A DNA stretch of 64,000 nt from a virus. Taxonomy: Duplodnaviria; Caudoviricetes. Every line of letters begins with the position of its first letter. Positions within the stretch are counted from its first letter, which is position 1. Made by a program: the position numbers and the translations under genes. This document shows, in pieces, positions 8,067 to 28,422 of this stretch. The stretch lies in IMG/VR virus record IMGVR_UViG_3300033074_000984, one strand, 5' to 3'. The notes beneath the pieces are model-generated. The model was not told the DNA's origin. It saw only the letters and a list, made by a program, of their open reading frames with translations, and did not search any database.

Positions 8067-11000
8067 TTGGCACTCGAAATCGACCTCTCGAAGAGTCCCT
8101 ACTACGACGACTACAGCCCAGACAAGCACTTTCATAGGGTGCTCGTCAGGCCGGCAATTCCTGTGCAGGCTAGAGAGCTCACGACGTCCCAGACGATCAT
8201 GCAAGACCAGATCGAACGGTTCGGTCGGCACATCTTCAAGGACGGCTCCATCGTCGAGAAGTGCGAGCTTTACTACGAGCCTGGCCTGCAGTACGTCAAG
8301 CTCGGTGACACGTACGCCAACGGCTACTCGCTAACCGTCGCTGACCTGGTTGGTAAGCAGCTTCGTAGTGACGCTTCCGGCCTTCGAGCGCTCGTGACAG
8401 ACTCTGCACAGGGCGCGACGACCAGCTCTCCAGACCTCAACACCGTCTACATCGACTACCTCAACTCTGGAAACGACTACGTCACTAAGACGTTCGCCGA
8501 GGACGAGGTCCTTACTGTCTACACGACTAGCAACGTAGCCATCGGTCAGGTCTCCACCGCTAACGCCGCTGTGTCGGGCAACAGCGCCTACGTGGGCTAC
8601 GCCTACAAGATGGCAGTGTCGGGCGGAACCGTCTTCCAGAAGGGCTTCTTCATCGGCGTCGAGCCGCAGTCTATCGTCGTCACGAAGTACCACAACCGCC
8701 CTGACAAGCTGTCTGTGGGCTTTCACACCGTAGAGTCTATCGTAACGCCAGAGGAGGACCCGAGCCTCCTTGACAACGCTGCCGGATCTGAGAACTACGG
8801 AGCTCCAGGCGCGCACCGACTTCGCCTCACACCGACCCTGGTCGTTCGCGACACCTCCAACACGACTAACAGCAACACTGAGGTCTTCTTCGCCCTCGCA
8901 GACTTCGTCGAGGGCGCCCCGTCAAGAGCCGCTGGCGTTGACCCGGCCTACGCAGCGCTCGGCGACGAGCTGGCTAAGAGGACTAACGAGGAGTCTGGCG
9001 ACTACATAATCGAGCCGTTCAACATGCGAGCGCTGCCGATATCTGGCAACAACACGCACCTGAAGCTCGAGCTAGACCCTGGCCTGGCCTACATCAAGGG
9101 CTATCGTGTCAAGACCGTTGGCAAGCTGGTCAGCTCGATCAGGAAGTCTGACGACATCAGACAGATAGAGGACCAAGTCGTGTCTGCCACCGTTGGCAGC
9201 TACGTCTACGCGACAGAGTATGCAGGCCTGTTCGACTTTCCGACGATAGCGTCGGTGTCACTCCGAAGCGCCAACGCTCAGGTCGTCACGACCGCTCTAG
9301 CGACTGGAGCCAGCGTTGACAGCGTCTCTGCTCCCGGCTCTGAGATCGGCACGGCGAAGATCATCGGCGCGTATCACGACTCAGGCTCTGTTGGTCTGCC
9401 GAGCACGACCTATCGCATGTACCTCACTGACATCGTCATGGCGCCGAACACGAGCTTCTCGAGCGTTCGGTCTCTGTACAGCGTCTCGGGAGGGGCGAAG
9501 GGCTTCGCAGACCTCGTTCTCGAGTCTAACAACGCGATCCTCAAGGACTCGTCTCTAACCCCACTCATCTACGACCTCGGCACCGATCACACTCGAGCGC
9601 TCATAAGCAGCGCCAACACCATCAACGCGCAGTTCGACTTCCGTACGGCGTCTAACGTCACGTTCGCAGTTGGCGGCACGGCTACGCTTAGCGTGCCCAG
9701 CCACGTAGGCGGCACTAACAAGTTCCCTTACGGCGTAGGCGCGCTAGACTCTACGTCCGAGAACGACTTCATGGTCGTCGTCACGAGCAACGCGGCCACG
9801 GCTAACCTGGCGGGTCGAGTCAGCAACACCAGCGCTAACACTGTTGGGTGGACGATAGGACAGTCGTCAGACTTCACCTCCCAGTACTCTGTTGGCGAGC
9901 ACGTCCTGTTCCTTAACGCTACGGCGTCAGAGGTGGGACGAGTAACCGCGGTTACGAGCTCGAGCATCTCTCTAGCCAACAACCTCACCTACGCCTGGTC
10001 AAACTCGGCGCACGCCAAGTACTACCCTGTCGGCTACACCATACCGTTCAGCTCGAGCTCGGGACGATCTATCACTATAAGCTCTGCGACGAGCGCCTCT
10101 CTGGCCCTCGGTGAGACCTTTACTGGGTCCTTCAACTCCAGGATCTACTACAACGTACGACGAACGAACGCCGTGCCAGCAGCGAAGACCCTTAACACAA
10201 GCGTCTTTGTCAAGATCAACACTGACACCCACACCAACGGGACAACCGGCCCGTGGAGCCTCGGGCTGCCAGACACGTTCCTACTCAAGCACGTCTATGT
10301 CGGCTCTGGCACCTACGCCAACACCAACCCGGACAGGACGTCTCTGTTCTCTGTAGATCCTGGACAAAAGGACACCTACTACGGACTCTCTCGCCTGACC
10401 AAGAGCCCGACGTACGCGCTTCCGGCCAACGCATCACTGCTCGTCGAAGTCATGTGCTTCGCTCCTGACACGTCACAGGGTGTCGGCTACTTCTCCGTGG
10501 ACTCGTTCGACATCGACGACTCCGGTAACAGCAGCTCTAACAGCATCTCGACGCAGTACGTGCCGAGCTACACCTCTGCTAGCTCCGGCAAGAGCTACTC
10601 GTTCCGTGACTCGGTGGACTTCAGACAGTACGCCGTAGCAACCGCGGCGTACGCCGCCAACGCCAGCTCTGCCACCACGAACCCCAACGGCAACAACAGC
10701 CTCTCTGTCACGTCTAGCTTCTTCCCCGTAGTCGACTCCACGTTCGAGTCGGACGTTCAGTACTACCTCGGAAGGAAAGACGTCGTCGGACTGACCCCAG
10801 AGGGCTCTGTCGTGGTCGTCGAGGGCACCCCGTCTGAGAGGCCGATAGAGCCGCACAAGATCTCATCCGGCATCTCGCTCTCATACGTCACGGTTCCGCC
10901 GTACCCGTCGCTCACCTCTACAGAGGCGCGTGACAACCAGTCCGGCGTTGACACGATCCAGTTCACGCCTATCAAGAACCGTCGCTACACCATGAGCGAC

Positions 11001-14000
11001 ATCGGCAAGCTCGACGACCGCATCTCAGTCGTAGAGTACTACACCTCTCTGAGCCTTCTCGAGCAGTCGACTAAGTCGCTACTGCTAGAGTCAGAGACGG
11101 GTGGTGACAGGTTCAAGAACGGCATCATCGCTGACCCGTTTAACGGTCACGACATCGGCAACGTGACCGACCCTGACTATAACATAGCTATGGACTCTGC
11201 GACGTCAGAGGCTCGCCCGATCGTCACGCAGAAGCTCGTACAGATGAAGTACGACTCCGCCACGCCAACTTCGAGCAGCATCTACGTCAGCGACAACGGG
11301 AAGCTCGTGATTCTCGGCTGCGAACGCGTCGAGAACCCGTACCTCTTCCAGATGTACGCCACGCAGCTGCGCAATCCCAGCCAGGACATCGCGTACCGCT
11401 GGGTCGGCACAGTCAACCTGACGCCAGAGGGCGACTACACCCCCGACGTCACGGTCAACCCAGACGTGACTGTCGGTCTCGACTTGTACTCCAACTTCAA
11501 GTACCTCTACGACCGTCTCAACCTCGCTGACGGCGGCATCGGCCAGGGAGCATGGGTGACGCAGTACGGCACGTGGAGAGAGACAGGCACCACGTCGACC
11601 ACCGACACAAGCACGACTCCCGGCAGCACCACGTACAGCCCGCAATACAGCGTTCACGTTGACAGCGTTGGATGGTACTACGTCGATCCAGCTACCGGTC
11701 AGAAGGTGTATGTCGCTGACATCTCCATGGGCCCGAACGCTGGCGGGCTCAACTTCGGTTGGAAGGAGACCGGTGACCAGACCGTTCAGTTCGTCACGAA
11801 GACGGCTGCTAGCACCACCACGACAGTCACCACGAGCGTTGACCAGACGCGAACTGGAATACAGTCAAACGTTCAAGAGAACACTACGACGTACAGTCTC
11901 GGCTCGTACGTAACAGACGTCGCGCTTCAGCCGTTCATCAAGGCCCAGGCGATCTACTTCGGAGCCGTCGGCTTGAAGCCGTCCACCCGCATGTGGATGT
12001 TCTTCGACGACGACGCGATCTCGCAGTACTGCGCACAGCTCACAAACGGCGTGCTCGGCCCGCTGGGCGGACCGTTCGTCACAGACGAGCTCGGGTCTAT
12101 CGAGGGCTGGTTCTTCCTTCCCTCGAGCACCTTCAGGACGGGAGAGCGCAAGTTCCGCATACTTGACATCTCGGACCTCGTCACAGAGACGACAATCTTG
12201 CGCTCGAGCGCAGAGGCCACCTTCTACGGCACGAACCTCTCGTACGCCAAGAACAACATCAACCTCGAGATCAAAGACGCGACGGTCTATCAGAAAGACA
12301 TCCAGGAGTCTCGAACTGTCGTCTCTAGCGTGAGCACGACGACCGGCGGCCAGGTGTCTACGGCCGTCGTGAACTGCAAGTGCTACGGATCGCCGTGCGC
12401 TCAGAGCTTCATAATGCCCGAGGAGAAGCTCGGAGAGAACGACATCTCTGGCGTCTACATCGCGGCCATGGACCTGTTCTTCTCGAAGAAGCACGAGACG
12501 CTAGGCCTCACGGTCATGATCCGTGAGATGGAGAACGGCTACCCGGCGCCTAGGATCCTCCCGTACGGCTCTAAGCACCTGACGTCCGACGACGTCCTGC
12601 TCTCTGACGACGCTACGCTGGCCACCACGGTGGTCTTCGAGGCGCCGGTGTTCCTCGAGAGCAAGAAGGAGTACTGCATAGTCGTCAAGGCCGACGGCTT
12701 CAATCCTGACTACGCCATGTGGACCGCTGCTCTCGGCGGTGATCCCGACGTCACTCTCAACGTGCCCGTCTATCACAACAGCTTCGTAGGAAACTTCTTT
12801 ACGAGCTCGACGGACACCGGCTGGACCGCGTACCAGCAAGAGGACCTGAAGATCGCGATCTATCGACTGACGTTCACCACCCTGGACGCAGTCGCAAGCT
12901 TCGTCAACGAGGACTGGGAGTTCTTGAAGCTTAACAGCCAGCTCGGCACGTTCATGGTTGGCGAGCAGGTGTACTTCGCTAACACCGCCGACTACTCAAA
13001 CGGCGTCTACGTCGAGTCTGGTAACACGACGATCGGCCTCTCAAGCAACGCCGGCTTCTCCGCCAACGACAAGATCTACGTGCTCTCCAACACGAACGTC
13101 TCAGCGTTCGTGGCCAACGTCGTGTCCGTCGGATCAAACACCATCACCGTCAACGCGACGCCTGACTTCTCAGACGCAGACTGCGAGATCGGTCACCTGA
13201 GAAACTCGGGACAGCTGTACGGCAGCCTCTATGAGTGGGTTCCGGTGACGGGCGAGATGACCGTGGCTAACTCGACCGCTACGGGCGCGAGCTACGTCAT
13301 AGCCAACACCCGTGTCATCGGCGCCATGTCTAACGCGAGCGCCAACGTCGCTCTCGTAGACGACCTGCCGTACAACGTGGTGATGCCCAAGCTCGCCACG
13401 AGCGTCCCTCACCAGACGGCGCTGACGTTCTCGTTCAAGGGCTCGTCAAACACCTACGTCTATGACACCGCTGAGACTGCGCTCGAGTTCGCTAACGACA
13501 GAGAGCTTCGAGACTACGAACGCCTAGTCCTGTCGCGCTCGAACGAGCTCGCGGGCTCTTACGGCAAGTCGCTAAGGCTGTACGCTCACTACTACTCGAA
13601 CTCTGAGAAGACGAGCCCGGCCATTGACATGAACAAGTGTGGAATGCACACTGTTCGTAACATAATCAACGCAGACGCAGCTAACAACTACATCCGCGAT
13701 TCTGAGAAGGGAAACGGCGGCTACGCCATCGACAGGTACATCTCTAGGGCGGTCGTCTTGGCTGACGGTCAAGACGCCGAGGACATCAAGATACTTGTCG
13801 CGGCTTACCAGCCGGCGAGCTCCAAGGTGCTCGTCTATGCTCGTATCCAGCACTACGCCGATCCAGACCTGTTCACCGAGAAGCCGTGGACGCTCCTGGA
13901 GACCGGCACCACTCTCGTGTCTAGTCGAGCTAACGCTCAGGACTTCATCGAGTACGAGTACGGCTTCCCGACAGTCGACCCAGGCGACGGCTCTGCGTGG

Positions 14001-14159
14001 TGCAACCCGAGCAACTACGGCATAGTGCAGTACGAGGGTGCAGACGGTCAGGTCTATGAGGGCTACAAGGTCTTCGCTGTAAAGATCGTGCTTCTCTCGA
14101 GCGACTCAGCCGTCGTGCCAAGGCTGCAAGACATGAGGGGCATGGCTCTTCAACAGTGA
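8067..14159 (+). CDS. Giant baseplate/tail structural protein (VrlC / DUF4815 type), 2030 aa
   Basis: SPYYDDY...RVL.RP..VQARELT..Q...Q.QIERFG, RT.EESGDY, YYLGR.D, RRYTM.DIGKL..RI..EYYTSLSLLE, RFKNG...D.F, AQSF and C-terminal VPRLQDMRGMAL; TTG start. Confidence 0.85.
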   Translation: MALEIDLSKSPYYDDYSPDKHFHRVLVRPAIPVQARELTTSQTIMQDQIERFGRHIFKDGSIVEKCELYYEPGLQYVKLGDTYANGYSLTVADLVGKQLRSDASGLRALVTDSAQGATTSSPDLNTVYIDYLNSGNDYVTKTFAEDEVLTVYTTSNVAIGQVSTANAAVSGNSAYVGYAYKMAVSGGTVFQKGFFIGVEPQSIVVTKYHNRPDKLSVGFHTVESIVTPEEDPSLLDNAAGSENYGAPGAHRLRLTPTLVVRDTSNTTNSNTEVFFALADFVEGAPSRAAGVDPAYAALGDELAKRTNEESGDYIIEPFNMRALPISGNNTHLKLELDPGLAYIKGYRVKTVGKLVSSIRKSDDIRQIEDQVVSATVGSYVYATEYAGLFDFPTIASVSLRSANAQVVTTALATGASVDSVSAPGSEIGTAKIIGAYHDSGSVGLPSTTYRMYLTDIVMAPNTSFSSVRSLYSVSGGAKGFADLVLESNNAILKDSSLTPLIYDLGTDHTRALISSANTINAQFDFRTASNVTFAVGGTATLSVPSHVGGTNKFPYGVGALDSTSENDFMVVVTSNAATANLAGRVSNTSANTVGWTIGQSSDFTSQYSVGEHVLFLNATASEVGRVTAVTSSSISLANNLTYAWSNSAHAKYYPVGYTIPFSSSSGRSITISSATSASLALGETFTGSFNSRIYYNVRRTNAVPAAKTLNTSVFVKINTDTHTNGTTGPWSLGLPDTFLLKHVYVGSGTYANTNPDRTSLFSVDPGQKDTYYGLSRLTKSPTYALPANASLLVEVMCFAPDTSQGVGYFSVDSFDIDDSGNSSSNSISTQYVPSYTSASSGKSYSFRDSVDFRQYAVATAAYAANASSATTNPNGNNSLSVTSSFFPVVDSTFESDVQYYLGRKDVVGLTPEGSVVVVEGTPSERPIEPHKISSGISLSYVTVPPYPSLTSTEARDNQSGVDTIQFTPIKNRRYTMSDIGKLDDRISVVEYYTSLSLLEQSTKSLLLESETGGDRFKNGIIADPFNGHDIGNVTDPDYNIAMDSATSEARPIVTQKLVQMKYDSATPTSSSIYVSDNGKLVILGCERVENPYLFQMYATQLRNPSQDIAYRWVGTVNLTPEGDYTPDVTVNPDVTVGLDLYSNFKYLYDRLNLADGGIGQGAWVTQYGTWRETGTTSTTDTSTTPGSTTYSPQYSVHVDSVGWYYVDPATGQKVYVADISMGPNAGGLNFGWKETGDQTVQFVTKTAASTTTTVTTSVDQTRTGIQSNVQENTTTYSLGSYVTDVALQPFIKAQAIYFGAVGLKPSTRMWMFFDDDAISQYCAQLTNGVLGPLGGPFVTDELGSIEGWFFLPSSTFRTGERKFRILDISDLVTETTILRSSAEATFYGTNLSYAKNNINLEIKDATVYQKDIQESRTVVSSVSTTTGGQVSTAVVNCKCYGSPCAQSFIMPEEKLGENDISGVYIAAMDLFFSKKHETLGLTVMIREMENGYPAPRILPYGSKHLTSDDVLLSDDATLATTVVFEAPVFLESKKEYCIVVKADGFNPDYAMWTAALGGDPDVTLNVPVYHNSFVGNFFTSSTDTGWTAYQQEDLKIAIYRLTFTTLDAVASFVNEDWEFLKLNSQLGTFMVGEQVYFANTADYSNGVYVESGNTTIGLSSNAGFSANDKIYVLSNTNVSAFVANVVSVGSNTITVNATPDFSDADCEIGHLRNSGQLYGSLYEWVPVTGEMTVANSTATGASYVIANTRVIGAMSNASANVALVDDLPYNVVMPKLATSVPHQTALTFSFKGSSNTYVYDTAETALEFANDRELRDYERLVLSRSNELAGSYGKSLRLYAHYYSNSEKTSPAIDMNKCGMHTVRNIINADAANNYIRDSEKGNGGYAIDRYISRAVVLADGQDAEDIKILVAAYQPASSKVLVYARIQHYADPDLFTEKPWTLLETGTTLVSSRANAQDFIEYEYGFPTVDPGDGSAWCNPSNYGIVQYEGADGQVYEGYKVFAVKIVLLSSDSAVVPRLQDMRGMALQQ

Positions 14160-14173
14160 CTAGCACGTTTTGC

Positions 14174-14208
14174 GCATATATAGTTCCACATGGAGGACTA
14201 ACATATGC
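14174..14208 (+). promoter_or_regulatory. Late-promoter variant (CATATATA) overlapping an RBS/start-sequestering hairpin
   Basis: CATATATA 14175-14182; GCATAT pairs with ATATGC (covers the ATG); TAGT..TCC pairs with GGA..ACTA around GGAGG. Confidence 0.6.
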
Positions 14209-14960
14209 AAACCAAGTACGGCTTCGTCTACGTCTGGAGAGACAGAAAGCACAAGAGGTACTACGTAGGGTCCCACTGGGGACGGGAGGATGACGGCTAC
14301 GTCTGTAGCTCTCGATGGATGCTAGCCGCAATCAATCGACGTCCGAACGACTTTAAGCGACGCGTGATCAAGCGAGGATTCATCGACAGAGCCGCTCTAT
14401 ATGCAGAAGAGCGTAGATGGCTCTCCATGATCAAGCCTGAAGAGATAAAGCAGGGCTCAAAGAGCCGTTACTATAACCTCAACATAAAGGGCGCTGGTCA
14501 CTGGGTCGCGTTTCCAGACACCAGGAGCATTCGCGAGAAGATCAGCGCTGCTAACAAGGCCTCTCACAAAGGGATGACTCCCTTCTGGGCAATAGAAGCT
14601 AATCGTGGTAGAAAGCACTCCCAGGAGCGCAAAGATCGACAGATCGCTGCCTGGAAAAGCAACCCCGCAAACGTGGAGAGGGCGAGAGCGACTGGTCAAG
14701 CGCGACGCGGATCAAAGGCGTCTCCAGAGAGCATAGAAAAGATGCTAGAAACGAGAAGACGCAACGGCACGCGTAGCGTGATCACTGAAAAAACTAGGGA
14801 GATGTCTAGGACCGTAGAGGCTCTAGCAAAGAGGTCCCTGTCAATGGCTGGAAAGAACACTGGTAAGCGACCAGTCGCAACGTGTCCGCACTGCGGTAAG
14901 ATCGGTGGAGACAACGCCATGCGGCGCTATCACTTCAACAACTGTAGAGAGGCAGCATGA
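14205..14960 (+). CDS. Seg-like GIY-YIG homing endonuclease, copy 1
   Basis: GFVY..YYVG motif, conserved Glu (EERRW) and YYNL; NUMOD3-like basic repeats; C-terminal CPHC..HFNNC. Confidence 0.85.
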   Translation: MQTKYGFVYVWRDRKHKRYYVGSHWGREDDGYVCSSRWMLAAINRRPNDFKRRVIKRGFIDRAALYAEERRWLSMIKPEEIKQGSKSRYYNLNIKGAGHWVAFPDTRSIREKISAANKASHKGMTPFWAIEANRGRKHSQERKDRQIAAWKSNPANVERARATGQARRGSKASPESIEKMLETRRRNGTRSVITEKTREMSRTVEALAKRSLSMAGKNTGKRPVATCPHCGKIGGDNAMRRYHFNNCREAA

Positions 14961-15178
14961 ACCTGGTAAAGGTGAGGGACCACCCCGGCCTCGCGCGCGA
15001 CATGAACAGCAAGGCGGTTCTCTCCACTGACGAGAGAGCGCTGCGACAGTACAGGGCTCGTAGGAAGCGAGCCCGCGAGCTCGCCTCAGAGCAGAGAGAG
15101 ACTGCGAAGACTATCGAAGACCTTCGTGCGCAGGTAGAAGAGCTGCGTTCAGCGATGTCTGCCATCCTCGGAAAGTAG
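14957..15178 (+). CDS. Small conserved coiled-coil protein
   Basis: LVKV..HP.L.RD..SKAVLSTD pattern of the small gene that follows VrlC-like genes in T4-like phages; ATGA overlap. Confidence 0.7.
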   Translation: MNLVKVRDHPGLARDMNSKAVLSTDERALRQYRARRKRARELASEQRETAKTIEDLRAQVEELRSAMSAILGK

Positions 15179-15179
15179 A

Positions 15180-16532
15180 ATGAAGTTTAAGGTGCTAGCA
15201 GTTAAACACGTGCTCGGCAGCCCGAAGCTCGCAGAGTTCACGTACGACAACGACACGTCAGAGCTTCGCGATCGAAACGGCGTGCTCATCGTAGACGACG
15301 CAGCGCGAGCGAAGATCGGATGCGCGTCCTGGGGAGTCGCCGAGGCTACGAGCGAGCAGAGCCCGCTCGGAAAGCTGACGAGAGTGAGAGACCTCAAGAT
15401 CCAGCTCGGGCTCCAGTGCAACTACTCTTGCACGTATTGTAGTCAACGGTTCGTCGAGCGAGCTGAGACCGGCGGCCCGTCTCAGGCAGAGGTCTTCATG
15501 AACAACCTCGACACCTGGCTAGACGGCTCGCCCGAGAAGATAGAGCTCTGGGGCGGCGAGCCGTTCGTCTACTGGAAGACGCTGAGGCCTCTAGGAGAGG
15601 CTCTTCGTGAACGTTTTCCAGACGCACAGATCATGGTGATCACGAACGGCTCTCTCCTCAACGAAGAGATCAATGACTGGATAGAGCGGCTCGGCGTCTG
15701 CGTCGGCGTGAGTCACGACGGCCCAGGACAGCACGTGCGAGGCCCAGACCCGCTCGAGGACCCAGAGAAGAGGCGCTGGGTGATCGACCTGTGGAGACGT
15801 CTGTCTCCCGTCGGTAAGATCTCGTTCAACCCGATGACTAACCGGCTGAACATGGACCGCGGCAAGATCCAGGAGTTCTTTCGCGAGCTCCTCGGCACCG
15901 ACGAGTTCTTGCTCGGAGAGGGAGACTTCATAGACGCATACGACGAGGGCGGCTCGGCGTGCTCTATGCAGAGCCGCGAGGAGCACCTCGGCTTTCGACG
16001 ACTCACCCTCGCGCAGACGAGAGCTGGCCAGAACGACCGACTCGAGATCGTCAATCGCAGGGTCGCTGAGTGGGTCAACTCTATATCCACTCAGCGACCG
16101 TCGTCCTCTCTCTGGCAGAAGTGCGGCATGGATCGACTTGACACGCTGGCCGTAGACCTCAAGGGGAACGTGATCACGTGCCAGAACGTGTCAGCCGCAG
16201 CGGTGGCCCCGAACGGCCGAGGGCACAAGATAGGCCACGTGTCTAGGATGGATCGCGTGGCTCTGAGAACGTCTACTCACTGGAGCGAGCGACCAGGCTG
16301 CCCCACGTGCCCGATGCTGCAGCTCTGCAAGGGCAGCTGCATGTTCCTTGAAGACGAGCTGTTCAAGAGGTCGTGCGACTCCTCTTACTCAGACCACGTG
16401 CCGTTCTTCGCGGTAGCGATCGAGCGGCTGACAGGCTACCTTCCGTTCAGGATAGAGCCGCTCGAGGGCAGTCTTCCAGAAGATCGAGCTGACCTTTGGG
16501 GAAGGCCTGACGAGGAGGGGGTAGTGCCGTGA
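15180..16532 (+). CDS. Radical SAM protein with SPASM domain
   Basis: CNYSCTYC (CxxxCxxC), WGGEP, ITNG, SHDG; C-terminal CGMD, CQNV and CPTCPMLQLCKGSC..C (Cx2Cx5Cx3C). Confidence 0.92.
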   Translation: MKFKVLAVKHVLGSPKLAEFTYDNDTSELRDRNGVLIVDDAARAKIGCASWGVAEATSEQSPLGKLTRVRDLKIQLGLQCNYSCTYCSQRFVERAETGGPSQAEVFMNNLDTWLDGSPEKIELWGGEPFVYWKTLRPLGEALRERFPDAQIMVITNGSLLNEEINDWIERLGVCVGVSHDGPGQHVRGPDPLEDPEKRRWVIDLWRRLSPVGKISFNPMTNRLNMDRGKIQEFFRELLGTDEFLLGEGDFIDAYDEGGSACSMQSREEHLGFRRLTLAQTRAGQNDRLEIVNRRVAEWVNSISTQRPSSSLWQKCGMDRLDTLAVDLKGNVITCQNVSAAAVAPNGRGHKIGHVSRMDRVALRTSTHWSERPGCPTCPMLQLCKGSCMFLEDELFKRSCDSSYSDHVPFFAVAIERLTGYLPFRIEPLEGSLPEDRADLWGRPDEEGVVP

Positions 16533-17311
16533 GCTTCTCAGTGTCAGTGCGTGGAAAAACACTTAAAGACCCGATCAAGCTGTTCCTTACGGACTCGTAT
16601 CCCGAGACGCCCATCTCTGACATCGACAGCGTCTTCGGGTTCCTCATAGAGAGCACGCCGCTCTATGGAGGCAGGAACTACTACGTCAACCCGTGGGTGA
16701 CTAGGAAGCGTGTCCCTGAGCTCTCTGCGAGAGACGTAGAGGCTCTTAAAGAGCTGAAGATCGGGTTACGAGTGCCTCTGACGAGTCTGTTCGTGACCGA
16801 GAAAGAGTACGAGAACAGCGCCCCGTTCTTTGAGAGGCTCAAGACCGTCTACTCGCCCACAGCGCTCGTCGCGCGCGACGAGCTCGCTAGGGCTATACGG
16901 CGCGACTATCCGTGGCTCAAGATCGAGGCGAGCGTGATACGCGACCTCCGAACAGTCAGCTCCATAGAGCGAGCACTCGAGACGTACGACTCCGTAGTTC
17001 CAGCGTTCGAGGCTCACGAGGACCTCGACCTACTTGACAAGCTACCGAGAGACAAGACGCGACTGTTCGCCAACGTCTCGTGCGAGAGAGCCTGTCCCGC
17101 TCGCATATGCTACGCGTACTTCTCAAGAGTTAACAAGAACCCACGCGACGGAGTCGACCTGGGACCGCCATGCTCACAGAGCATCGAGAGGCTCTCTAAA
17201 GCCACCACGCCCACCGGCGGCATGACGCGATACCCGATAGAGAGATACAAAGAGATGGGCTTCGACAAGTTCAAGCTCCTAAGAGAGCGCGTACCCGGAC
17301 AAGCTGCGTGA
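16529..17311 (+). CDS. U32-family (peptidase U32-like) Fe-S protein
   Basis: IDSVFG..YGGR, IRRDYP.LKIEAS, FANVSCERACPARICY..S..N...C and GFDKFKL pattern; four Cys; GTGA coupling to the rSAM gene. Confidence 0.65.
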   Translation: MSFSVSVRGKTLKDPIKLFLTDSYPETPISDIDSVFGFLIESTPLYGGRNYYVNPWVTRKRVPELSARDVEALKELKIGLRVPLTSLFVTEKEYENSAPFFERLKTVYSPTALVARDELARAIRRDYPWLKIEASVIRDLRTVSSIERALETYDSVVPAFEAHEDLDLLDKLPRDKTRLFANVSCERACPARICYAYFSRVNKNPRDGVDLGPPCSQSIERLSKATTPTGGMTRYPIERYKEMGFDKFKLLRERVPGQAA

Positions 17312-17317
17312 TAAATA
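17310..17317 (+). promoter_or_regulatory. T4-type late promoter (GATAAATA)
   Basis: NATAAATA box 9 nt before the ATG at 17327. Confidence 0.6.
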
Positions 17318-17326
17318 GGCTCGACC

Positions 17327-18103
17327 ATGACGATACAGATATCCAGACTAGCTAATAACCAGACGTTCGGCACACTCACCGAGCGACTAAACCTGCTGTT
17401 GGGCATGCTCTCGAGCAACGTCGTCACGCTCGACCAGGGAGCCTCTGGGGCGGTCAACACCGGTAACGGTCAGGTCAACGGCTACTTTTACTCTACAGTT
17501 CTGAGTGCTGGCACCCTTCGTGGCGGCACCGTCGCGTCACCAAACACCCTTCCCATATCTTCGAACGCGGTGTTCCAGTCATACCTCGGCGCGAACGTGG
17601 CTCAGTTCCTCTCGAACTCTACAGCCACGTGGGTGAACTGCACCCCAACGTCGTTCTACATCAACCCAGCAAGCGTCTTCTCTCTATCCAACGGAGCTTT
17701 CAGGGCGTACGGCAACGGCGAGGTCACCGTCTCTGGCGTCAGCGTCGGCAACAGCAGCGTCAACGTAAGCGTTAACAGCACTTCATTCAGCGGCACTGCC
17801 GCGTACGCGAACAACTCCACATACGCGTACGGCAAGGGAGAGGCCGCTCTAAACGTCAACTCTGCCGCGTACGCGAACAACTCCACATACGCGTACGGCA
17901 AGGGAGAGGCCGCTCTTAACGTCAACAGCGCCGTAACAGCCACCACGGCCAACAACTCCACCTACGCGTACGGCAAGGGAGAGGCCGCTCTAAACGTCAA
18001 CAGCGCCGCGAGCGCTACGAACTCTACAAACGCTAACAACGCGTCATATCTCGGAGGGAGCGCCGTCGGCGACCTGATCGCGATATCGGTAGCCATGGGC
18101 TAG
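17327..18103 (+). CDS. Short tail-fibre-like virion protein with 22-aa repeats
   Basis: Asn/Ser/Ala-rich; three ANNSTYAYGKGEAALNVNS repeats; C-terminal IAISVAMG motif typical of phage fibre ends. Confidence 0.7.
   Translation: MTIQISRLANNQTFGTLTERLNLLLGMLSSNVVTLDQGASGAVNTGNGQVNGYFYSTVLSAGTLRGGTVASPNTLPISSNAVFQSYLGANVAQFLSNSTATWVNCTPTSFYINPASVFSLSNGAFRAYGNGEVTVSGVSVGNSSVNVSVNSTSFSGTAAYANNSTYAYGKGEAALNVNSAAYANNSTYAYGKGEAALNVNSAVTATTANNSTYAYGKGEAALNVNSAASATNSTNANNASYLGGSAVGDLIAISVAMG
17798..18007 (+). repeat. In-frame 66-bp tandem coding repeat (about 3 copies)
   Basis: gccgcgtacgcgaacaactccacatacgcgtacggcaagggagaggccgctct at 17798 and 17864; third copy near 17951. Confidence 0.9.
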
Positions 18104-18114
18104 GAGAAAGATAA

Positions 18115-18435
18115 ATGGCCTCAAACTTCAACGTAACCGGCTCTGTGAGCATCGGCACCAGCGCCGTCCAGGTCGGCTCCTACACCCCCGGTGCTGGCGT
18201 CAAGACCGTCGTCCTCAGCTTGATTCTGAGCAACAAGCTCACGAGCGACATAACTGTCAGCGCCTGGCACTACAACGCTACGGCTAACACGACCCTGATA
18301 ACCAACGCACCAGTAGCGGCCGGAGAGTCGCTAGCTCTACAGAAGATCGTCATGGCGGCTAACAACAAGCTGTGGGTGTCGTCTAACACAGCGTCAAGCG
18401 TTGACGCGACGCTGAGCTACCTAGAGATCACCTGA
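18115..18435 (+). CDS. Small beta-sandwich virion protein (fibre-associated)
   Basis: MASNF...YT.......TVVLSLILSN...KIVM.ANNKL.V.S...SVDATLSYLEIT pattern that commonly follows AIAMAIALG-type fibres; GGAG RBS. Confidence 0.65.
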   Translation: MASNFNVTGSVSIGTSAVQVGSYTPGAGVKTVVLSLILSNKLTSDITVSAWHYNATANTTLITNAPVAAGESLALQKIVMAANNKLWVSSNTASSVDATLSYLEIT

Positions 18436-18438
18436 TCT

Positions 18439-19737
18439 ATGCAGATACTGGAGAGCATACGATCTCTGTCCCACTCTTCTGGGACAGCGTCTGTTACCGG
18501 CGCAGTGAGGGCGACGCGCAACCCCACGGGAACGGTCGATCGGCTGCGTCTGCCTTGCAACGGCGCCAACTACTCCCAGTCACAGTACAGCGGTCTCTAT
18601 CAGAAGATTGGTGGTGCGTACTCTAGGTCAACCAACGTCCACGTGAACGGCAAGCCGTGGAAGAATCGCTTTTTAGACATGAATGCTGGAACGAGCACGC
18701 TAGGCAGCTGGACAACAGGCACGAGCCTGCCAGGCGCGTTGAATTACTCTCAGGCTATAGTCACAAAGAGTCGCGTATATCTTCTTGGAGGATATAACGG
18801 CTCTAGCTACATAGCAACCGTCTACACCGCTCCGATCAACTCGGACGGCACGCTTGGCAGCTGGACGACTGGCACCAGCTTGCCAGATAGTATAGGTCGA
18901 TCTCAACCGATCATGACTAAAGATCGTGTATATCTTCTTGGAGGATGGAACAGCTCTATAGTCTCCACGGTCTACACAGCCCCTATAAACTCTGACGGCA
19001 CTCTAGGGACCTGGACGACTGGCACGAGTCTTCCAGCCGGGTGGACCAGCTCTCAAGCTATAGTCACAAATAGTCGCGTATATCTTCTTGGAGGATATAA
19101 CGGCTCTAGCTACACAGCAACCGTCTACACGGCTCCGATCAACTCTGACGGCACTCTGGGCACCTGGACGACTGGCACGAGCGTACCAGATAGTATAGGT
19201 CGATCTCAATCGATCATGACCAAAGATCGCGTCTACCTTCTCGGAGGATATAACGGCTCTCCAGTCTCCACGGTCTATACGGCTCCGATCAACTCAGACG
19301 GTACTCTAGGCACCTGGACGACAGGAACGAGTCTTCCAGGAGCGCTGTGCAACTCCCAAGCTATAGTCACAAATAGTCGCGTATATCTTCTAGGAGGCGA
19401 AAACGGCTCTCCAGTCTCCACGGTCTATACGGCTCCGATCAACTCAGACGGCACTCTGGGCACCTGGACGACTGGTACGAGTCTTCCAGGAGGACTAACT
19501 AGCACTCAAGTCATAGTAACTAACGGCCATGTTTATCTGCTCGGTGGAAATAACGGCTCTGTAACGTCTACTGTCTACACAGCTACTATCTCTAACTTGG
19601 GAGCTAATGACTATCTCACTGGAACCACACTCGAGTGCTACCTGCCAGCCACCGGCGGCTCTGAGTTCGCCGTGCCGCGTTATCCGTACGAGTACACGCT
19701 AGACGGCGGCAGGATGCCGGTCTATATAGACGAGTAG
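18439..19737 (+). CDS. Tail-collar protein with inserted six-blade Kelch propeller, paralog 1
   Basis: Collar half-motifs LPCNGANYSQSQYSGLYQKIG and EFAVPR flank six WTTGTSLP..SQ...RVYLLGG..VYTAPINSDG repeats. Confidence 0.8.
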   Translation: MQILESIRSLSHSSGTASVTGAVRATRNPTGTVDRLRLPCNGANYSQSQYSGLYQKIGGAYSRSTNVHVNGKPWKNRFLDMNAGTSTLGSWTTGTSLPGALNYSQAIVTKSRVYLLGGYNGSSYIATVYTAPINSDGTLGSWTTGTSLPDSIGRSQPIMTKDRVYLLGGWNSSIVSTVYTAPINSDGTLGTWTTGTSLPAGWTSSQAIVTNSRVYLLGGYNGSSYTATVYTAPINSDGTLGTWTTGTSVPDSIGRSQSIMTKDRVYLLGGYNGSPVSTVYTAPINSDGTLGTWTTGTSLPGALCNSQAIVTNSRVYLLGGENGSPVSTVYTAPINSDGTLGTWTTGTSLPGGLTSTQVIVTNGHVYLLGGNNGSVTSTVYTATISNLGANDYLTGTTLECYLPATGGSEFAVPRYPYEYTLDGGRMPVYIDE

Positions 19738-22200
19738 ACACAGTGAGCGACAACGCATTCTACGTGCGATCATCACCAGACAGCACACAAGGAACTGACG
19801 TAGGCGTCGGCTACTACGCGGGAGCGCGCACAGCGCTCCCGACTGGGATAGCGCTGTGCGACGGAGCCAACTACTCTCAAGCGCTCTTTCCTAAGAGCTA
19901 CGCAGCGCTGGGTGATCGGTTCTCGCGTTCGACTAACGTCCACGTAAACGGCAAGCCGTGGAAGAGCAGCCCAACCGCTTCTGGCACAATAACCTCATGG
20001 ACTACGGGTACGAGCCTGCCAGGCGTGCTGAAGGACTCACAGGCCGTAGTCACCAAGAACAGAGTGTACCTTCTTGGCGGGTCTAACGACTCCAGCTACC
20101 TCGCAACCGTCTACACGGCTCCGATCAACTCTGACGGCACTCTAGGGACCTGGACGACTGGCACGAGCTTGCCTGGCAACTTAAAGCAGTCTCAAGCCGT
20201 GATGACGAAGGACCGAGTTCATCTCATGGGAGGTGACAACGGCTCTTCAGTCTCCACGGTCTATACGGCTCCAGTCAACTCAGACGGGACTCTAGGCACC
20301 TGGACGACTGGCACCAGCCTGCCAGCTGCCAAGCACACAGCATCTGCGGTTGTCACGAAGGACCGCGTCTACCTGATGGGTGGAGACAACGGCTCTGGAC
20401 TCGTCTCTAACGTCTACACAGCTCCCGTCAACTCAGACGGCACGCTTGGCAGCTGGAGCACGACGACGAGCCTGCCAGGCGGATTAAGGTTCTCTCAAGC
20501 TGTAGTGAACGGCAACTGGGTATACCTGCTCGGCGGAGGCACGCCCAACGCCGTGTCTACCGTCTATCGAGCCAGGGTCTACGACGACGGCTCGCTCGGA
20601 GCATGGAGCACCGACACCAGCCTCCCTGGCGTGCTGCGCATGAGCCAAGCCGTGGTGGTGAAGAACTACGTGTACCTCCTTGGCGGCTCTATAACTAGCA
20701 CGAGCGTGTCGACTGTGTACATGGCGCAGATCAACGCTGACGGGTCTATAGGCGCCTGGACGACCGGCACGAGCTTGCCAGGAAACCTTGAGGTGTCGCA
20801 AGCAATCATCACTAAGGATCACGTTTACACTCTTGGTGGCTGGAACGGATCTAACACGGTGTCTACGGTCTACGTGGGCGCAGCCTCAGGGGCTGGCCTC
20901 AACGACTACCTCACCGGAACTACGCTCTCATGCTACCTGCCGGCTACTGGCGGCTCTGAGTTCGCAGTGCCGAGACTACCGCTGATAAACGACTCTGGCA
21001 TAGTCCACCTTCTTTATCCCTATGTGAGTCTCAAATGAGCATAGAAAAGATCGGCGCGTTCTCGTCAACGCCTAGTGGAGCTCTAAACCCTGGAGTCGTG
21101 TACTGGTCTTCTACGACGAACGGCGTGCTGTGCGACGGAGCCAACTACGCACAGTCTAGCAAGTCTGGCTTGTACGGAGCTCTCGGCAGCCGATTCACAC
21201 GATCTACAAACATTCACATTAACGGCCACCCGTCAAAGAATCGCTTCCTGGACACTGGTACCGGCTCTGGTGACATAGCCTCATGGAGCACCGGCACCAG
21301 TCTGCCGGTAGCCTCGACACTCTCGCAAGCCTTCGTCACCAAGGACCGAGTCCATCTCATCGTCGGGCATGACGCCTCAGGCGCATCTAGCTCTGTCTAC
21401 ACGGCTCCGATCAACTCAGACGGCACGCTCGGTACGTGGGCCGCCGGAGGAAGCCTTCCAGTAGGCGTCTACAGCTTTAACTCACTGATGACAAAGGACC
21501 GCGTCTACCTTCTCGGAGGCGACACGGGCTCGGTAACCTCTACCGTCTACACAGCTCCAGTCAACTCAGACGGCACGCTCGGTACGTGGACCACTGGCAC
21601 CAGCCTGCCCAGCGCCAGACGAGCTTTTCAAACTGTGGTGACGCATGATCGAGCCTACCTGTTCGGAGGTGACACCGTTCCAAACGGCGTCGTAAACACT
21701 AACGGCGGCGCCAGCTCCACGGTCTACACGGCTCCGATCAACTCTGACGGGACCCTCGGCAGCTGGACGACAGCCGCGTCTCTACCAGAGGGAAGCTACG
21801 GATCGCAGTTCGTGGCGCTGGGCAGCAGAGTGTACATGCTGGGCGGCGCCAACGGAACTGGTGTCATATCTACCGTAAGGTCTGCAGTAATCAACGAAGA
21901 CGGCACGATCGGCACCTGGCAGACAGAGCTGAGCTTGCCGGGTGCGCGACGGTACTCTGCTGCACTCGTGCTGAAGAACAAGATCTATCTCGTAGGCGGC
22001 CACGACGGCACGAACTACTATTCAACCACGTATTACGCTACGCTGAACAGCGACGGCTCTATAGGCTCGTGGTCTAGCGGCATCAGCATTCCAGCAGCCA
22101 GGATGTCCTCGCAAGTGATAGCCACGAAGGACCACGTATACGTCCTCGGCGGCTACAACGGCGGCTACCTGTCGGACGTCTACTACGCTAGCGTCTCTGG
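18700..22200 (+). repeat. Kelch blade repeats of about 150 bp, 18 blades across three genes
   Basis: Recurring gtctacacggctccgatcaactcNgacggcac core; near-identical 303-bp two-blade duplication near 18748 and 19051. Confidence 0.85.
19743..21038 (+). CDS. Tail-collar protein with inserted six-blade Kelch propeller, paralog 2
   Basis: LPTGIALCDGANYSQALFPKSYAALG ... EFAVPRL with six Kelch repeats; GTG start. Confidence 0.8.
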   Translation: MSDNAFYVRSSPDSTQGTDVGVGYYAGARTALPTGIALCDGANYSQALFPKSYAALGDRFSRSTNVHVNGKPWKSSPTASGTITSWTTGTSLPGVLKDSQAVVTKNRVYLLGGSNDSSYLATVYTAPINSDGTLGTWTTGTSLPGNLKQSQAVMTKDRVHLMGGDNGSSVSTVYTAPVNSDGTLGTWTTGTSLPAAKHTASAVVTKDRVYLMGGDNGSGLVSNVYTAPVNSDGTLGSWSTTTSLPGGLRFSQAVVNGNWVYLLGGGTPNAVSTVYRARVYDDGSLGAWSTDTSLPGVLRMSQAVVVKNYVYLLGGSITSTSVSTVYMAQINADGSIGAWTTGTSLPGNLEVSQAIITKDHVYTLGGWNGSNTVSTVYVGAASGAGLNDYLTGTTLSCYLPATGGSEFAVPRLPLINDSGIVHLLYPYVSLK

Positions 22201-22345
22201 TGTTGGAACGAACGATTGCCTAACTGGAACCACCCTCGAGTGCTACCTGCCAGCCACCAGCGGCTCTGAGTTCGCAGTGCCGCGACTGGCGCCAAGAACC
22301 AACTTCTATTCTGGAACTCGAGAGTATCCCCTAATTACGTCGTAG
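21035..22345 (+). CDS. Tail-collar protein with inserted six-blade Kelch propeller, paralog 3
   Basis: VLCDGANYAQSSKSGLYGALG ... EFAVPRL with six Kelch repeats; ATGA overlap. Confidence 0.8.
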   Translation: MSIEKIGAFSSTPSGALNPGVVYWSSTTNGVLCDGANYAQSSKSGLYGALGSRFTRSTNIHINGHPSKNRFLDTGTGSGDIASWSTGTSLPVASTLSQAFVTKDRVHLIVGHDASGASSSVYTAPINSDGTLGTWAAGGSLPVGVYSFNSLMTKDRVYLLGGDTGSVTSTVYTAPVNSDGTLGTWTTGTSLPSARRAFQTVVTHDRAYLFGGDTVPNGVVNTNGGASSTVYTAPINSDGTLGSWTTAASLPEGSYGSQFVALGSRVYMLGGANGTGVISTVRSAVINEDGTIGTWQTELSLPGARRYSAALVLKNKIYLVGGHDGTNYYSTTYYATLNSDGSIGSWSSGISIPAARMSSQVIATKDHVYVLGGYNGGYLSDVYYASVSGVGTNDCLTGTTLECYLPATSGSEFAVPRLAPRTNFYSGTREYPLITS

Positions 22346-22353
22346 GAGACATC

Positions 22354-22809
22354 ATGGCACAGTACACGTCTAGCCCACTCATAATACAAACAAACGCTGG
22401 CGAGCTCGTCGCGGTCAACAACTCTAACCCGGCGTACCTAGCTCTACTAGCGTCTGGCGAGGAGATACTCCCGTACGTGCCGCCGCCGGCTGACGAGTTC
22501 CTAGCGCGTGACCTGTTCTATCAGTTCACGGCTGGCGACGTGGCCAGGCTCCAGATCGCTATCGAGGACGAGTCAACCGCGGCAAGAGCCGCGATCGCGG
22601 CACAACAGGAGCCGTCAGCTCCTCTGCGCCTTCTGTGGGACTCTCTCACTGCGCAGGGAGAGTGGAAGATCCGCACAACTAGCCAACAGTTCAAAGACGG
22701 CTGGGGCGCGATGACGGCCATACTCGGAGCTACGAGAATGGAAGAGATCGCAATCGCGCTCTACATCAATCCAGACGCAGTCCTACTGACAGAGACCCCG
22801 CCCGCATGA
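22354..22809 (+). CDS. Hypothetical protein, possible tail-fibre assembly chaperone
   Basis: NPAYLA.LASG....PYVPPP motif reminiscent of fibre chaperones; follows the fibre genes; GGAG RBS. Confidence 0.5.
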   Translation: MAQYTSSPLIIQTNAGELVAVNNSNPAYLALLASGEEILPYVPPPADEFLARDLFYQFTAGDVARLQIAIEDESTAARAAIAAQQEPSAPLRLLWDSLTAQGEWKIRTTSQQFKDGWGAMTAILGATRMEEIAIALYINPDAVLLTETPPA

Positions 22810-23054
22810 CGCCCTTGATCTTTCTTAGAAACTACGCCTACAACGCGCTCTGTCTCGCGTCCCAAGCCGCGAACACCCTGCTGCTCGGCGGTGACCCAGA
22901 CGAGAGCCTCTCCTCACGAGCTGGCAAGAGCATTCGTGATGGTGGCTGGGTGTCGGACGTTCCCCTGCCTGAATGGCTGCGCGCTCACTTTCTCTGGTCT
23001 ATAGAGGATGATCGCGGAGACGCGAGTGCGTGGCTACGGAGAGAGATCGGCTGA
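22806..23054 (+). CDS. Small conserved phage protein
   Basis: SQ..N.LL.GGDPDESLSSRAGK motif of a widespread small phage family; coupled to neighbours at both ends. Confidence 0.6.
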   Translation: MTPLIFLRNYAYNALCLASQAANTLLLGGDPDESLSSRAGKSIRDGGWVSDVPLPEWLRAHFLWSIEDDRGDASAWLRREIG

Positions 23055-23374
23055 TGGCGCAGAAGAGAAACCTAACTATTGACCAACGAGCCACGTTCTC
23101 ACACGTCTTCGACGTCATTCGTGACGGAGAGGCGGCGAGCCTCTCAGGCTACGAGGGCGCTGCGGCCATGAAGACCAGCTACTACGCAGAGAGCAACGCC
23201 GCGGTCTTCGACGTGACGGTCGGGAACACGAACGTCACTGTAAGCATGAACGCTGAGACCACCGCAGCTATCGAGCCAGGAAGGTACGTCTATGACGTTC
23301 GCGTGTACGCGCCATCCGGCGCCAGCACTCGGGTCGTAGAGGGCCTCGTCACCGTCAAGGGCGGCGTTTCATAA
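23054..23374 (+). CDS. Conserved virion protein (BppU N-terminal-like beta-sandwich)
   Basis: NLTIDQ.ATFS ... PGRYVYDV ... RVVEGLVTV; start moved to ATG 23054 (TGATG overlap). Confidence 0.7.
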   Translation: MAQKRNLTIDQRATFSHVFDVIRDGEAASLSGYEGAAAMKTSYYAESNAAVFDVTVGNTNVTVSMNAETTAAIEPGRYVYDVRVYAPSGASTRVVEGLVTVKGGVS

Positions 23375-23377
23375 ATA
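23370..23377 (+). promoter_or_regulatory. T4-type late promoter (CATAAATA)
   Basis: NATAAATA box upstream of the ORF at 23406. Confidence 0.6.
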
Positions 23378-23405
23378 AGTCAGACAACACGGGAACTAGG
23401 GCACA

Positions 23406-23789
23406 ATGGCAGCTAACATCGCAGACTCCAGACCTCTTGACTACGGACTCACGGTCTTTAGCAACGAGGCGTCGCACATCTACATCACCAGCGCTGAAGC
23501 TACGACGTTCGCCCAAGCCACGTCGACCTATGCGCTTGGTAACAAGAACTTCGGCGCAGGAAGCACGTTCGGCGCGCCGGCGGCCGGCTCCCCTAACGGT
23601 CGCAAGGTCACCTCGGTGGCGGTGACTAACGGCTCTGTGACGGCGAACGGGACGGCGACTAACTGGGCCGTTGTAGACTCTGCCAACTCGCGACTCCTCG
23701 CTGTCGGCAGCCTCACGGCGTCCCAGGTAGTGACGAACGGCAACCAGTTCACGCTGAGCGCCTTCGACATCCGCTATCCGAACCAGTAA
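23406..23789 (+). CDS. Virion structural protein, fibre-associated
   Basis: Beta-rich; GRKVT..A...GSVT..GTA..WA..D...LLA...L..SQ.VT.GN.FTL..FDI pattern seen next to Gly-rich phage fibres. Confidence 0.6.
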   Translation: MAANIADSRPLDYGLTVFSNEASHIYITSAEATTFAQATSTYALGNKNFGAGSTFGAPAAGSPNGRKVTSVAVTNGSVTANGTATNWAVVDSANSRLLAVGSLTASQVVTNGNQFTLSAFDIRYPNQ

Positions 23790-23816
23790 GCTTCGCGCGA
23801 GACTAGGTCATGAGAG

Positions 23817-24209
23817 ATGGTGCTCAGAGCGGCCTCGAGAGAGGAGATCGCTGAAACGACCCTCGCTGCGTTCGGCGAGAGTGTTAAGATCGACGCAGAG
23901 CTTGAAAGGGGTGAGGCGTACGCGCTCAAAACTGAGCACGGCCCCGCCCTTTTTGTTAAGAGCGACGTCCACGAGTACAAGATAACGATCGTCTTCACGG
24001 GCTCAGGCGTCGAGAACAAGCTAGAGGCCATATCTGTTGTCGACTGGATGTTTGAGAACACCGACGCTGAGCGCGTGATCGGATATATCAGCTCCGACAA
24101 CAAGGCGTGCCTAGCTCTGATCAAGTACTTGAAGAGCTACACGCTAGATGACGGCCCTGACGGACTAAAGATCTACAGAGTTGTAAAGAGCTCGTGGCTG
24201 GGAGGGTAA
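23817..24209 (+). CDS. Hypothetical protein, possible GNAT-like fold
   Basis: VDWMFENTDAERVIGYISSDNKACLAL resembles the C-terminal half of RimJ/RimL-type GNAT domains. Confidence 0.4.
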   Translation: MVLRAASREEIAETTLAAFGESVKIDAELERGEAYALKTEHGPALFVKSDVHEYKITIVFTGSGVENKLEAISVVDWMFENTDAERVIGYISSDNKACLALIKYLKSYTLDDGPDGLKIYRVVKSSWLGG

Positions 24210-24212
24210 CGA

Positions 24213-28376: not shown

Positions 28377-28389
28377 CTGACATACTTTG

Positions 28390-28420
28390 TATATATATAC
28401 CTCATCAGCTGATGGAGGTA
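28390..28420 (+). promoter_or_regulatory. Late-promoter variant (TATATATA) plus RBS-sequestering hairpin
   Basis: TATATATA 28390-28397; TACCTCATC-AGCT-GATGGAGGTA stem buries GGAGG. Confidence 0.65.
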
Positions 28421-28422
28421 CT

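Follow-up and report, generated by a model that had tools for sequence, protein, structure and literature searches.

Here, we describe two overlapping genes for predicted iron-sulfur (Fe-S) proteins, a radical S-adenosylmethionine (SAM) enzyme with a SPASM domain (P0001) and a divergent U32-like protein (P0002), that lie among the tail genes of a virus (Duplodnaviria; Caudoviricetes) represented by IMG/VR virus record IMGVR_UViG_3300033074_000984. The window analysed is a stretch of 64,000 nucleotides (nt) of this 161-kb record, whose completeness is estimated by CheckV at ~95%, and positions given without a contig name are those of the window. Positions 1-29000 form a co-directional block of baseplate and fibre genes, comprising baseplate wedge proteins (phrog_219, phrog_17744 and phrog_438), a giant protein of 2030 amino acids (aa), fibre-type genes and three Kelch/collar paralogs; the two enzyme genes are flanked by the giant protein gene (phrog_358) and fibre-type genes. 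The features of the proposed system are:

15180-16532, + strand: P0001, radical SAM/SPASM enzyme of 450 aa with three predicted [4Fe-4S] sites (phrog_1802)
16529-17311, + strand: P0002, divergent U32-fold TIM-barrel protein of 260 aa, putative [4Fe-4S] O2-independent oxidase/hydroxylase
8067-14159, + strand: giant tail/baseplate-associated protein of 2030 aa, candidate substrate (phrog_358, PHROG E reported as 0)
12369-12410, + strand: loop VNCKCYGSPCAQSF in the giant protein, with an NxxC motif and a third Cys, candidate modification site

The stop of the radical SAM gene and the GTG start of the U32-like gene overlap as GTGA (16529-16532), and a ribosome-binding site, GAGGAGG, lies 10 nt upstream of that GTG. 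A first-pass annotation, made from the DNA letters alone, had described two translationally coupled Fe-S genes between the giant protein and the fibre genes, and the coordinates, overlap and ribosome-binding site bear this out. Because intergenic gaps in the block do not exceed 45 nt and no + strand terminator-like site was found in 13800-24500, both genes appear to be co-transcribed with the structural genes; no T4-type late promoter was found near them.

P0001 scores above the cut-offs of Pfam Radical_SAM (PF04055; 35.6 bits, cut-off 29.5) and of the NCBIfam SPASM model TIGR04085 (30.5 bits, cut-off 27), which places it among the SPASM proteins (TIGR04085/PF13186). Its cluster motif CNYSCTYC occupies residues 80-87 (C80-x3-C84-x2-C87), the SPASM set of seven Cys is complete (C315-x13-G329-x4-C334; C374-x2-C377-x5-C383-x3-C387; C399), and both the CxxxCxxC and the seven SPASM Cys are invariant across 38 homologs. 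The PDB structures closest to its AlphaFold2 model (pLDDT 92.6), namely anSMEcpe (4k36), CteB (5why), ChlB (9gmc), SkfB, SuiB and TigE, are all peptide or protein modifiers; the sugar-acting radical SAM enzymes DesII, BtrN and BlsE are also among the matches and rank lower. Residues 1-65 form a conserved beta-rich N-terminal domain of three strands plus one helix, in which the motif F.YDN.TS is invariant; it is distinct from the canonical recognition element (RRE) of peptides that are ribosomally synthesised and modified post-translationally (RiPPs).

By fold and by profile, P0002 is a divergent member of the U32 superfamily of Fe-S TIM barrels that fails the Pfam model. No match to it was found in Pfam (E up to 0.1), NCBIfam, PHROGs or PDB sequences, or by profile against PDB, and PF01136 (cut-off 22.4 bits) matched none of 53 family members at E up to 1 and nothing in the phage genome at E up to 10. 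The predicted structure (pLDDT 92.4) matches the U32 structure Mk0906 (5d88) with a Foldseek E of 2.2e-7 and TM-scores of 0.65/0.67, and VIA-align pairs 220 of 247 residues at Z 16.3 and a root-mean-square deviation of 3.8, the next barrels reaching Z ~10.3; its ESM Atlas structural neighbours include a cluster (TM 0.76) with 26% of members carrying PF01136. The family profile retrieves a 399-aa protein (P0163) that is PF01136-positive at 53 bits, and hhalign relates the two with a probability of 96.9% (E 2e-10) over 189 columns including the Cys region. Alignment by hhalign to single E. coli U32 proteins or to a four-sequence U32 alignment was weak (probability 0.3-5.7%), although it paired the signature strand of U32 as well as the KIEGR-like strand at the end. 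In a 53-sequence alignment R8, G48, S135, C189, C194, C215, G244 and K249 are invariant and C185 is conserved in at least 90% of homologs, and the four conserved Cys (C185, C189, C194 and C215) follow the strand that is paired in the alignment with the signature strand of U32. The superposition on Mk0906 and the profile link to a PF01136 protein uphold the U32 fold first assigned to 16529-17311, as the above-cut-off scores and full invariant Cys set do the radical SAM-SPASM assignment of 15180-16532.

At E below 1e-10, the radical SAM family of P0001 numbers over 2300 clusters, and at least 494 IMG/VR contigs carry it. Of 401 genomes evenly sampled from one bacterial phylum, 1 has the gene; this sole bacterial match (L191) was not resolved as a prophage. 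The family is almost exclusively phage-borne and sits in tail-fibre modules, adjoining fibre genes in the cultured myovirus RSP15, siphovirus JWF and jumbo phage RP12. Neighbourhoods were counted at 78 sampled viral loci, of which 44 have a tail fibre with an S74 chaperone and 41 have a member of a family of about 240-280 aa ('p240') that is absent from the window. The ~240-aa genes adjoining the radical SAM gene in JWF and RSP15 were considered as U32-like and ruled out; they belong to this separate family. A gene resembling 2-oxoglutarate (2OG)-Fe(II) oxygenases lies within four genes at 54 loci and directly beside the radical SAM gene at 37 (assigned from borderline Pfam scores to PF13759 and PF13640, phrog_81, and hhalign probabilities of 98.3% and 97.6% between neighbour families), and in the window lineage P0002 holds this adjacent position; no match to PF13759 or PF13640 was found in the phage genome. 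At 50 of the loci, C.C is present within the final 25 residues of a neighbour no more than five genes away (NCNCNCNCDCYC is one such tail); fibres account for 40 of these C.C-ended open reading frames (ORFs), and such an ending occurs in only 55 of 799 ORFs overall. The association of the radical SAM family with these Cys ladders, which are overlapping NxxC motifs with N, D or A alternating with C, is real and specific.

In Achromobacter phage JWF, the fibre-type protein gp028 (L002:6676-8127), two genes upstream of the radical SAM homolog gp030, has an Asn-Cys ladder NCNCDCNCNCSC directly before a Hint self-cleaving domain (CFPAGT...), whose cleavage would leave the ladder as the C-terminus. 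In Ralstonia phage RSP15, gp048 (L001:6377-7249), annotated as 'side tail fiber, fragment', terminates with the minimal NxxC motif NCQCGN and lies three genes upstream of the radical SAM homolog gp045, with gp047 and gp046 between.

The order giant gene, ~70-aa gene, radical SAM gene and overlapping U32-like gene is shared by three related myoviruses: the window phage and two uncultured phages (contigs L005 and L192) with protein identities to the window of 51-63%. The enzyme genes overlap by 4 nt in L005 and by 8 nt in L192. A U32-like gene was found at 1 of the 78 other viral radical SAM loci, and that locus is the L005 contig again. The pair forms a unit in this one lineage only; outside it, the radical SAM and U32-like families occur independently of each other.

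C-terminal ladders are absent from all genes of the window, and the VNCKCYGSPCAQSF loop of the giant protein is the sole N-C-x-C motif to lie within a gene anywhere in the window. The loop is kept as VNC[K/D/Q]CY.SPCAQSF in the window, L005 and L192, where the giant-protein homologs of L005 and L192 bear PF16075 (DUF4815). Among 80 loci fetched for homologs of the loop region, the position reads DP[L/I]AQ[S/T]F, free of Cys, in 58, and the region was not located in 21 more; none of these 79 loci has a radical SAM or U32-like gene within 9 kb, and only the L005 contig has the loop together with both enzymes. Because this lineage-specific loop co-occurs with both enzymes, it is probably the best candidate substrate to be read from the sequences, and the co-occurrence, within one clade, supports a separate earlier remark that had singled out the giant-protein loop.

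An exhaustive search put the U32-like family of P0002 at 226 representative clusters, and at least 215 bacterial species genomes carry it; it is rare, with 4 occurrences in 400 other sampled genomes. Among the best 150 representatives, fusions to a sulfotransferase, with the two domains in either order, make up 19 of the 22 multidomain members, and a sulfotransferase gene lies within four genes at 13 of 54 bacterial U32-like loci. In a temperate phage, the U32-like gene occurs together with genes for a 595-aa protein and a sulfotransferase. A sulfotransferase needs a hydroxyl or amine acceptor. Because of this need for a hydroxyl, the simplest reading of the association would be that the U32-like protein hydroxylates and the sulfotransferase then sulfates. 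Iyer et al. (2010) predicted hydroxylation followed by sulfation for operons of 2OG oxygenases and sulfotransferases with tail-collar or collagen-like proteins (PMC2938197).

Viral contig L017 (IMGVR_UViG_3300048883_000844, 33.8 kb) carries at L017:3420-9754 a tail fibre gene (Mtd_N + Peptidase_S74) and unannotated ORFs of 339 and 149 aa, followed in order by a weakly sulfotransferase-like ORF, a weakly 2OG-oxygenase-like ORF, the U32-like gene, Sulfotransfer_1 and adenosine phosphosulfate (APS) kinase, which would be a phage-borne sulfation pathway directly behind a fibre gene. A bacterial lasso-peptide-like cluster (L007:884-8600; ENA ERZ25039477 contig_68563) contains genes for PqqD, two ScmC/HPr-kinase-like proteins, a sulfotransferase, Asn synthase and a 57-aa ORF, along with a phage tail-collar-domain protein and the U32-like/sulfotransferase fusion P0032. 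When all fetched loci were searched for Collar domains, only the seed was recovered. On a Gammaproteobacteria metagenome-assembled genome (MAG) contig (L018:6428-13672; JBRGND010000027.1), the order is Sulfotransfer_3, Beta_helix, U32-like, a fusion of Sulfotransfer_3 and DUF4915, and DUF4915, and in P0053 DUF4915 is fused directly to the U32-like domain. A second context for phage U32-like genes is that of P0161, which is encoded among small ORFs on the T4-like contigs L194 (L194:478-1275) and L195 (L195:607-1404), adjoining genes for a metallophosphatase/gp59-N fusion and an FkbM-type methyltransferase.

We propose, tentatively and at slightly less than an even chance, that the two window genes form a late-expressed maturation module for a virion protein, combining a thioether-type cross-link with an O2-independent oxidation. 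In a first step, the 5'-deoxyadenosyl radical and auxiliary clusters of P0001 would cross-link or oxidise Cys in an N-C-x-C motif, on the model of the Cys-S to Asn C-beta thioether of NxxcB or of the ranthionine links that CrpC makes on a whole protein; in most phages the target would be the (N/D/A)-C ladder at the C-terminus of a fibre protein, and here the loop VNCKCYGSPC in the giant tail protein, which is encoded ~1 kb upstream. In a second step, P0002 may oxidise or hydroxylate the same substrate without O2, possibly at a neighbouring Tyr or Asn, as UbiU/V, TrhP and RlhA act on theirs. Such a role is suggested for P0002 because it stands in the slot of a 2OG oxygenase and because its family is fused to sulfotransferases. 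The U32 proteins that have been characterised are Fe-S, prephenate-dependent factors for O2-independent hydroxylation (PMC6747719, PMC10990095) and have O2-dependent counterparts, UbiI/H/F for UbiU/V and TrhO for TrhP (PMC6747719, PMC6599085, PMC10990095). We hold as doubtful the wider claim that P0002 represents a new U32 branch that hydroxylates proteins without O2, which would make it the first U32 enzyme to act on a protein, and was swapped in for 2OG-Fe(II) oxygenases in low-oxygen phages, that with the radical SAM enzyme it cross-links and hydroxylates an exposed N-C-x-C-Y loop in the giant protein for adsorption or virion stability, and that the bacterial branch supplies hydroxyls to the fused sulfotransferases.

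The first-pass annotation had put forward the enzyme pair as a tail-linked system by which the phage modifies its own tail, baseplate or fibre proteins in a RiPP-like way. The part concerning the radical SAM enzyme stands: its family is linked to fibre genes in phages of all three tail types, and its nearest structures are peptide or protein modifiers. The pair is conserved in three related phages only, the tail linkage of the U32-like family is partial, its homologs being mostly bacterial with variable neighbours, and the substrate and chemistry are inferred.

Several observations weigh against the proposed module. A radical SAM gene was found at none of the 54 bacterial U32-like loci, the U32-like family is mainly chromosomal in MAGs of Gamma- and Alphaproteobacteria with variable neighbours, and P0161, a phage homolog 50% identical to P0002, is encoded in a non-tail region without a radical SAM gene. 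The co-occurrence of loop and enzymes is confined to one clade and amounts to a single evolutionary event rather than a statistic, and the loop itself is a short internal stretch, whereas the ladders elsewhere are long and C-terminal. P0001 was rejected as an anSME (TIGR03942; 23.5 bits, cut-off 349), the resemblance being structural only, as a PapB equivalog (48.7 bits, cut-off 340) and as a CrpC-type TIGR04463 protein (12.9 bits, cut-off 525, from the radical SAM core only). To our knowledge, the U32 substrates described are all aromatic rings, belonging to quinones or to RNA bases, and none is a protein. Direct hydroxylase activity in vitro is unproven even for the characterised U32 proteins (PMC10990095), and the Cys spacing of P0002, CX3CX4CX20C, departs from the U32 consensus CX6CX15CX3/4C (Pelosi et al.).

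It is possible, though unlikely, that both are accessory genes parked in a variable fibre region that act on a non-protein substrate, which could be a nucleic-acid base, the kind of target that TrhP and RlhA have, or else a small molecule or a glycan. Characterised U32 proteins work on ubiquinone precursors and RNA pyrimidines (PMC6747719, PMC6599085, PMC5727448), and the distribution of the U32-like family, mostly bacterial-chromosomal and linked to sulfotransferases, would fit such a role, as would the metallophosphatase/gp59-N and methyltransferase neighbours of P0161, in place of tail genes, and the glycosyltransferase and methyltransferase genes downstream in L005. DesII, BtrN and BlsE would likewise point to sugars, but they are structurally outranked by peptide- and protein-modifying SPASM enzymes; moreover, in phages of unrelated types the radical SAM family keeps company with fibre genes and Cys-ladder tails, and the pair is translationally coupled inside a structural operon.

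A system of the same kind could also act on a substrate other than the giant protein, and two sets of downstream genes come into question:

17327-18103, + strand: P0164, fibre-type protein of 258 aa that contains three copies of the repeat NNSTYAYGKGEAALNVNSA and has N-terminal homology to f1 tail fibres
18439-22345, + strand: three paralogous Kelch-propeller proteins with weak tail-collar matches (Kelch families above cut-off)

We consider this quite unlikely. P0164 starts 15 nt past P0002 and shares its N-terminus with f1 fibres that bear Cys ladders elsewhere, but it has a single Cys and P0165 has none, both are without an NCxC motif, and no in-gene C.C motif was found in P0164 or the Kelch/collar genes. 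The YAYGKGE repeat of P0164 was rejected as a conserved substrate motif, since it occurs only in the window phage and is absent from the L005 homolog. Tail-collar proteins are among the substrates predicted for hydroxylase-sulfotransferase operons by Iyer et al. (PMC2938197), and genes for a Collar protein and for a U32-like/sulfotransferase fusion occur together in a bacterial cluster, but the Collar (PF07484) matches of the Kelch proteins reach 14.7-20 bits, under the Pfam cut-off of 24.

That P0002 is instead an Fe-S electron-transfer or scaffold partner of the radical SAM enzyme, or a true U32-type peptidase trimming a fibre protein, is very unlikely: the U32 name derives from collagenase-type peptidases, direct hydroxylation by a U32 protein has yet to be reconstituted (PMC10990095), and UbiU and UbiV form a heterodimer of two Fe-S proteins (PMC6747719), so that a U32 fold could be a redox partner, but P0002 positionally replaces 2OG oxygenases, its family is mostly without any radical SAM gene and is fused to sulfotransferases with their need for a hydroxyl or amine acceptor, and in L017 it stands among a fibre gene, sulfotransferases and APS kinase.

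Maturation of Cys-rich proteins by radical SAM/SPASM enzymes is known, and the proposed module would be of this kind, here with a U32-like partner enzyme. Particular to the window locus are a new U32-superfamily branch that occupies the place of the oxygenase and, as the probable target, a Cys loop internal to the giant tail protein. A SPASM radical SAM enzyme is common to this locus, to NxxcB/NxxcA, a streptococcal radical SAM RiPP (RaS-RiPP) system, and to PapB-type ranthipeptide maturases, and the candidate motif N-C-x-C contains NxxC. NxxcB forms a Cys-S to Asn C-beta thioether and tolerates N, D and A acceptors, the same residues as in the ladders of related phages (PMC9389541). Unlike the leader-bearing peptides of those systems, the candidate substrate here is a 2030-aa structural protein (fibres in relatives), and no canonical RRE is evident. 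In CrpC/CrpA of Methanococcus voltae, a three-cluster SPASM radical SAM enzyme modifies a protein and is encoded beside its Cys-rich substrate, CrpC installing ranthionine links on the whole protein (PMC13692751); P0001 differs in lying outside TIGR04463, in its phage virion setting and in its U32-like partner. The best structural match of the P0001 model, anSMEcpe (PDB 4k36-4k39; Foldseek E 3.9e-12, TM 0.54/0.65), has a SPASM domain and modifies Cys or Ser of a folded-protein substrate, whereas P0001 has an extra 70-residue N-terminal domain; no sulfatase was found among the annotated neighbours of P0001, and no genome search was aimed at sulfatases. P0002 shares the barrel fold with UbiU/UbiV, TrhP, RlhA and Mk0906, and its four conserved Cys fall at the equivalent place in the barrel but are spaced differently; it is a single 260-aa domain without the C-terminal U32 extension, and its partners are radical SAM enzymes or sulfotransferases. 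The sulfotransferase company of its family, as in L017, resembles the operons of Iyer et al. (hydroxylase, sulfotransferase and synthesis of 3'-phosphoadenosine 5'-phosphosulfate, PAPS), which are predictions and use 2OG-Fe(II) dioxygenases (PMC2938197), whereas no sulfotransferase, and no second radical SAM gene, was found in the window phage genome.

In the literature, we found no description of phage virion proteins cross-linked or hydroxylated by radical SAM enzymes. The radical SAM family sits in hundreds of phage contigs beside host-recognition proteins, and if the proposed modification takes place, host-range prediction and phage engineering must allow for changes that are invisible in sequence. 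The sulfotransferase fusions and the replacement of a 2OG oxygenase suggest a testable function beyond quinones and RNA for an unannotated U32 branch. The giant-protein loop, the radical SAM enzyme and the U32-like protein provide a compact three-part test case for chemical tail maturation, with and without oxygen.

Two further genes lie between the giant protein gene and the radical SAM gene:

14205-14960, + strand: GIY-YIG-type homing endonuclease, outside the radical SAM/U32 system (phrog_314, E 4.8e-18)
14957-15178, + strand: virion structural protein of 73 aa, coiled-coil-like and Cys-free (phrog_473, E 4.8e-12)

Homologs of the 73-aa gene come after the giant gene in L005, L192, L041, L068 and RSP15, and the gene accompanies the giant gene rather than the radical SAM gene. 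The earlier statement that no separate small precursor peptide is evident agrees with this linkage and with the lack of Cys in the 73-aa ORF. The homing endonuclease gene is an insertion that separates the giant gene from the 73-aa gene, and its site is empty in L005 and L192; the sole sigma-70-like site of the region (14156-14184) precedes it, and a GIY-YIG-type paralog (phrog_314) is present at 28387-29256. A few kb downstream of the enzyme pair, L005, the closest relative of the window phage, carries extra genes (L005:12810-16786) that the window is without, encoding a family 2 glycosyltransferase (GT2) with tetratricopeptide repeats (TPR), a second, small radical SAM/SPASM protein (335 aa) and a glycosyltransferase/methyltransferase fusion.

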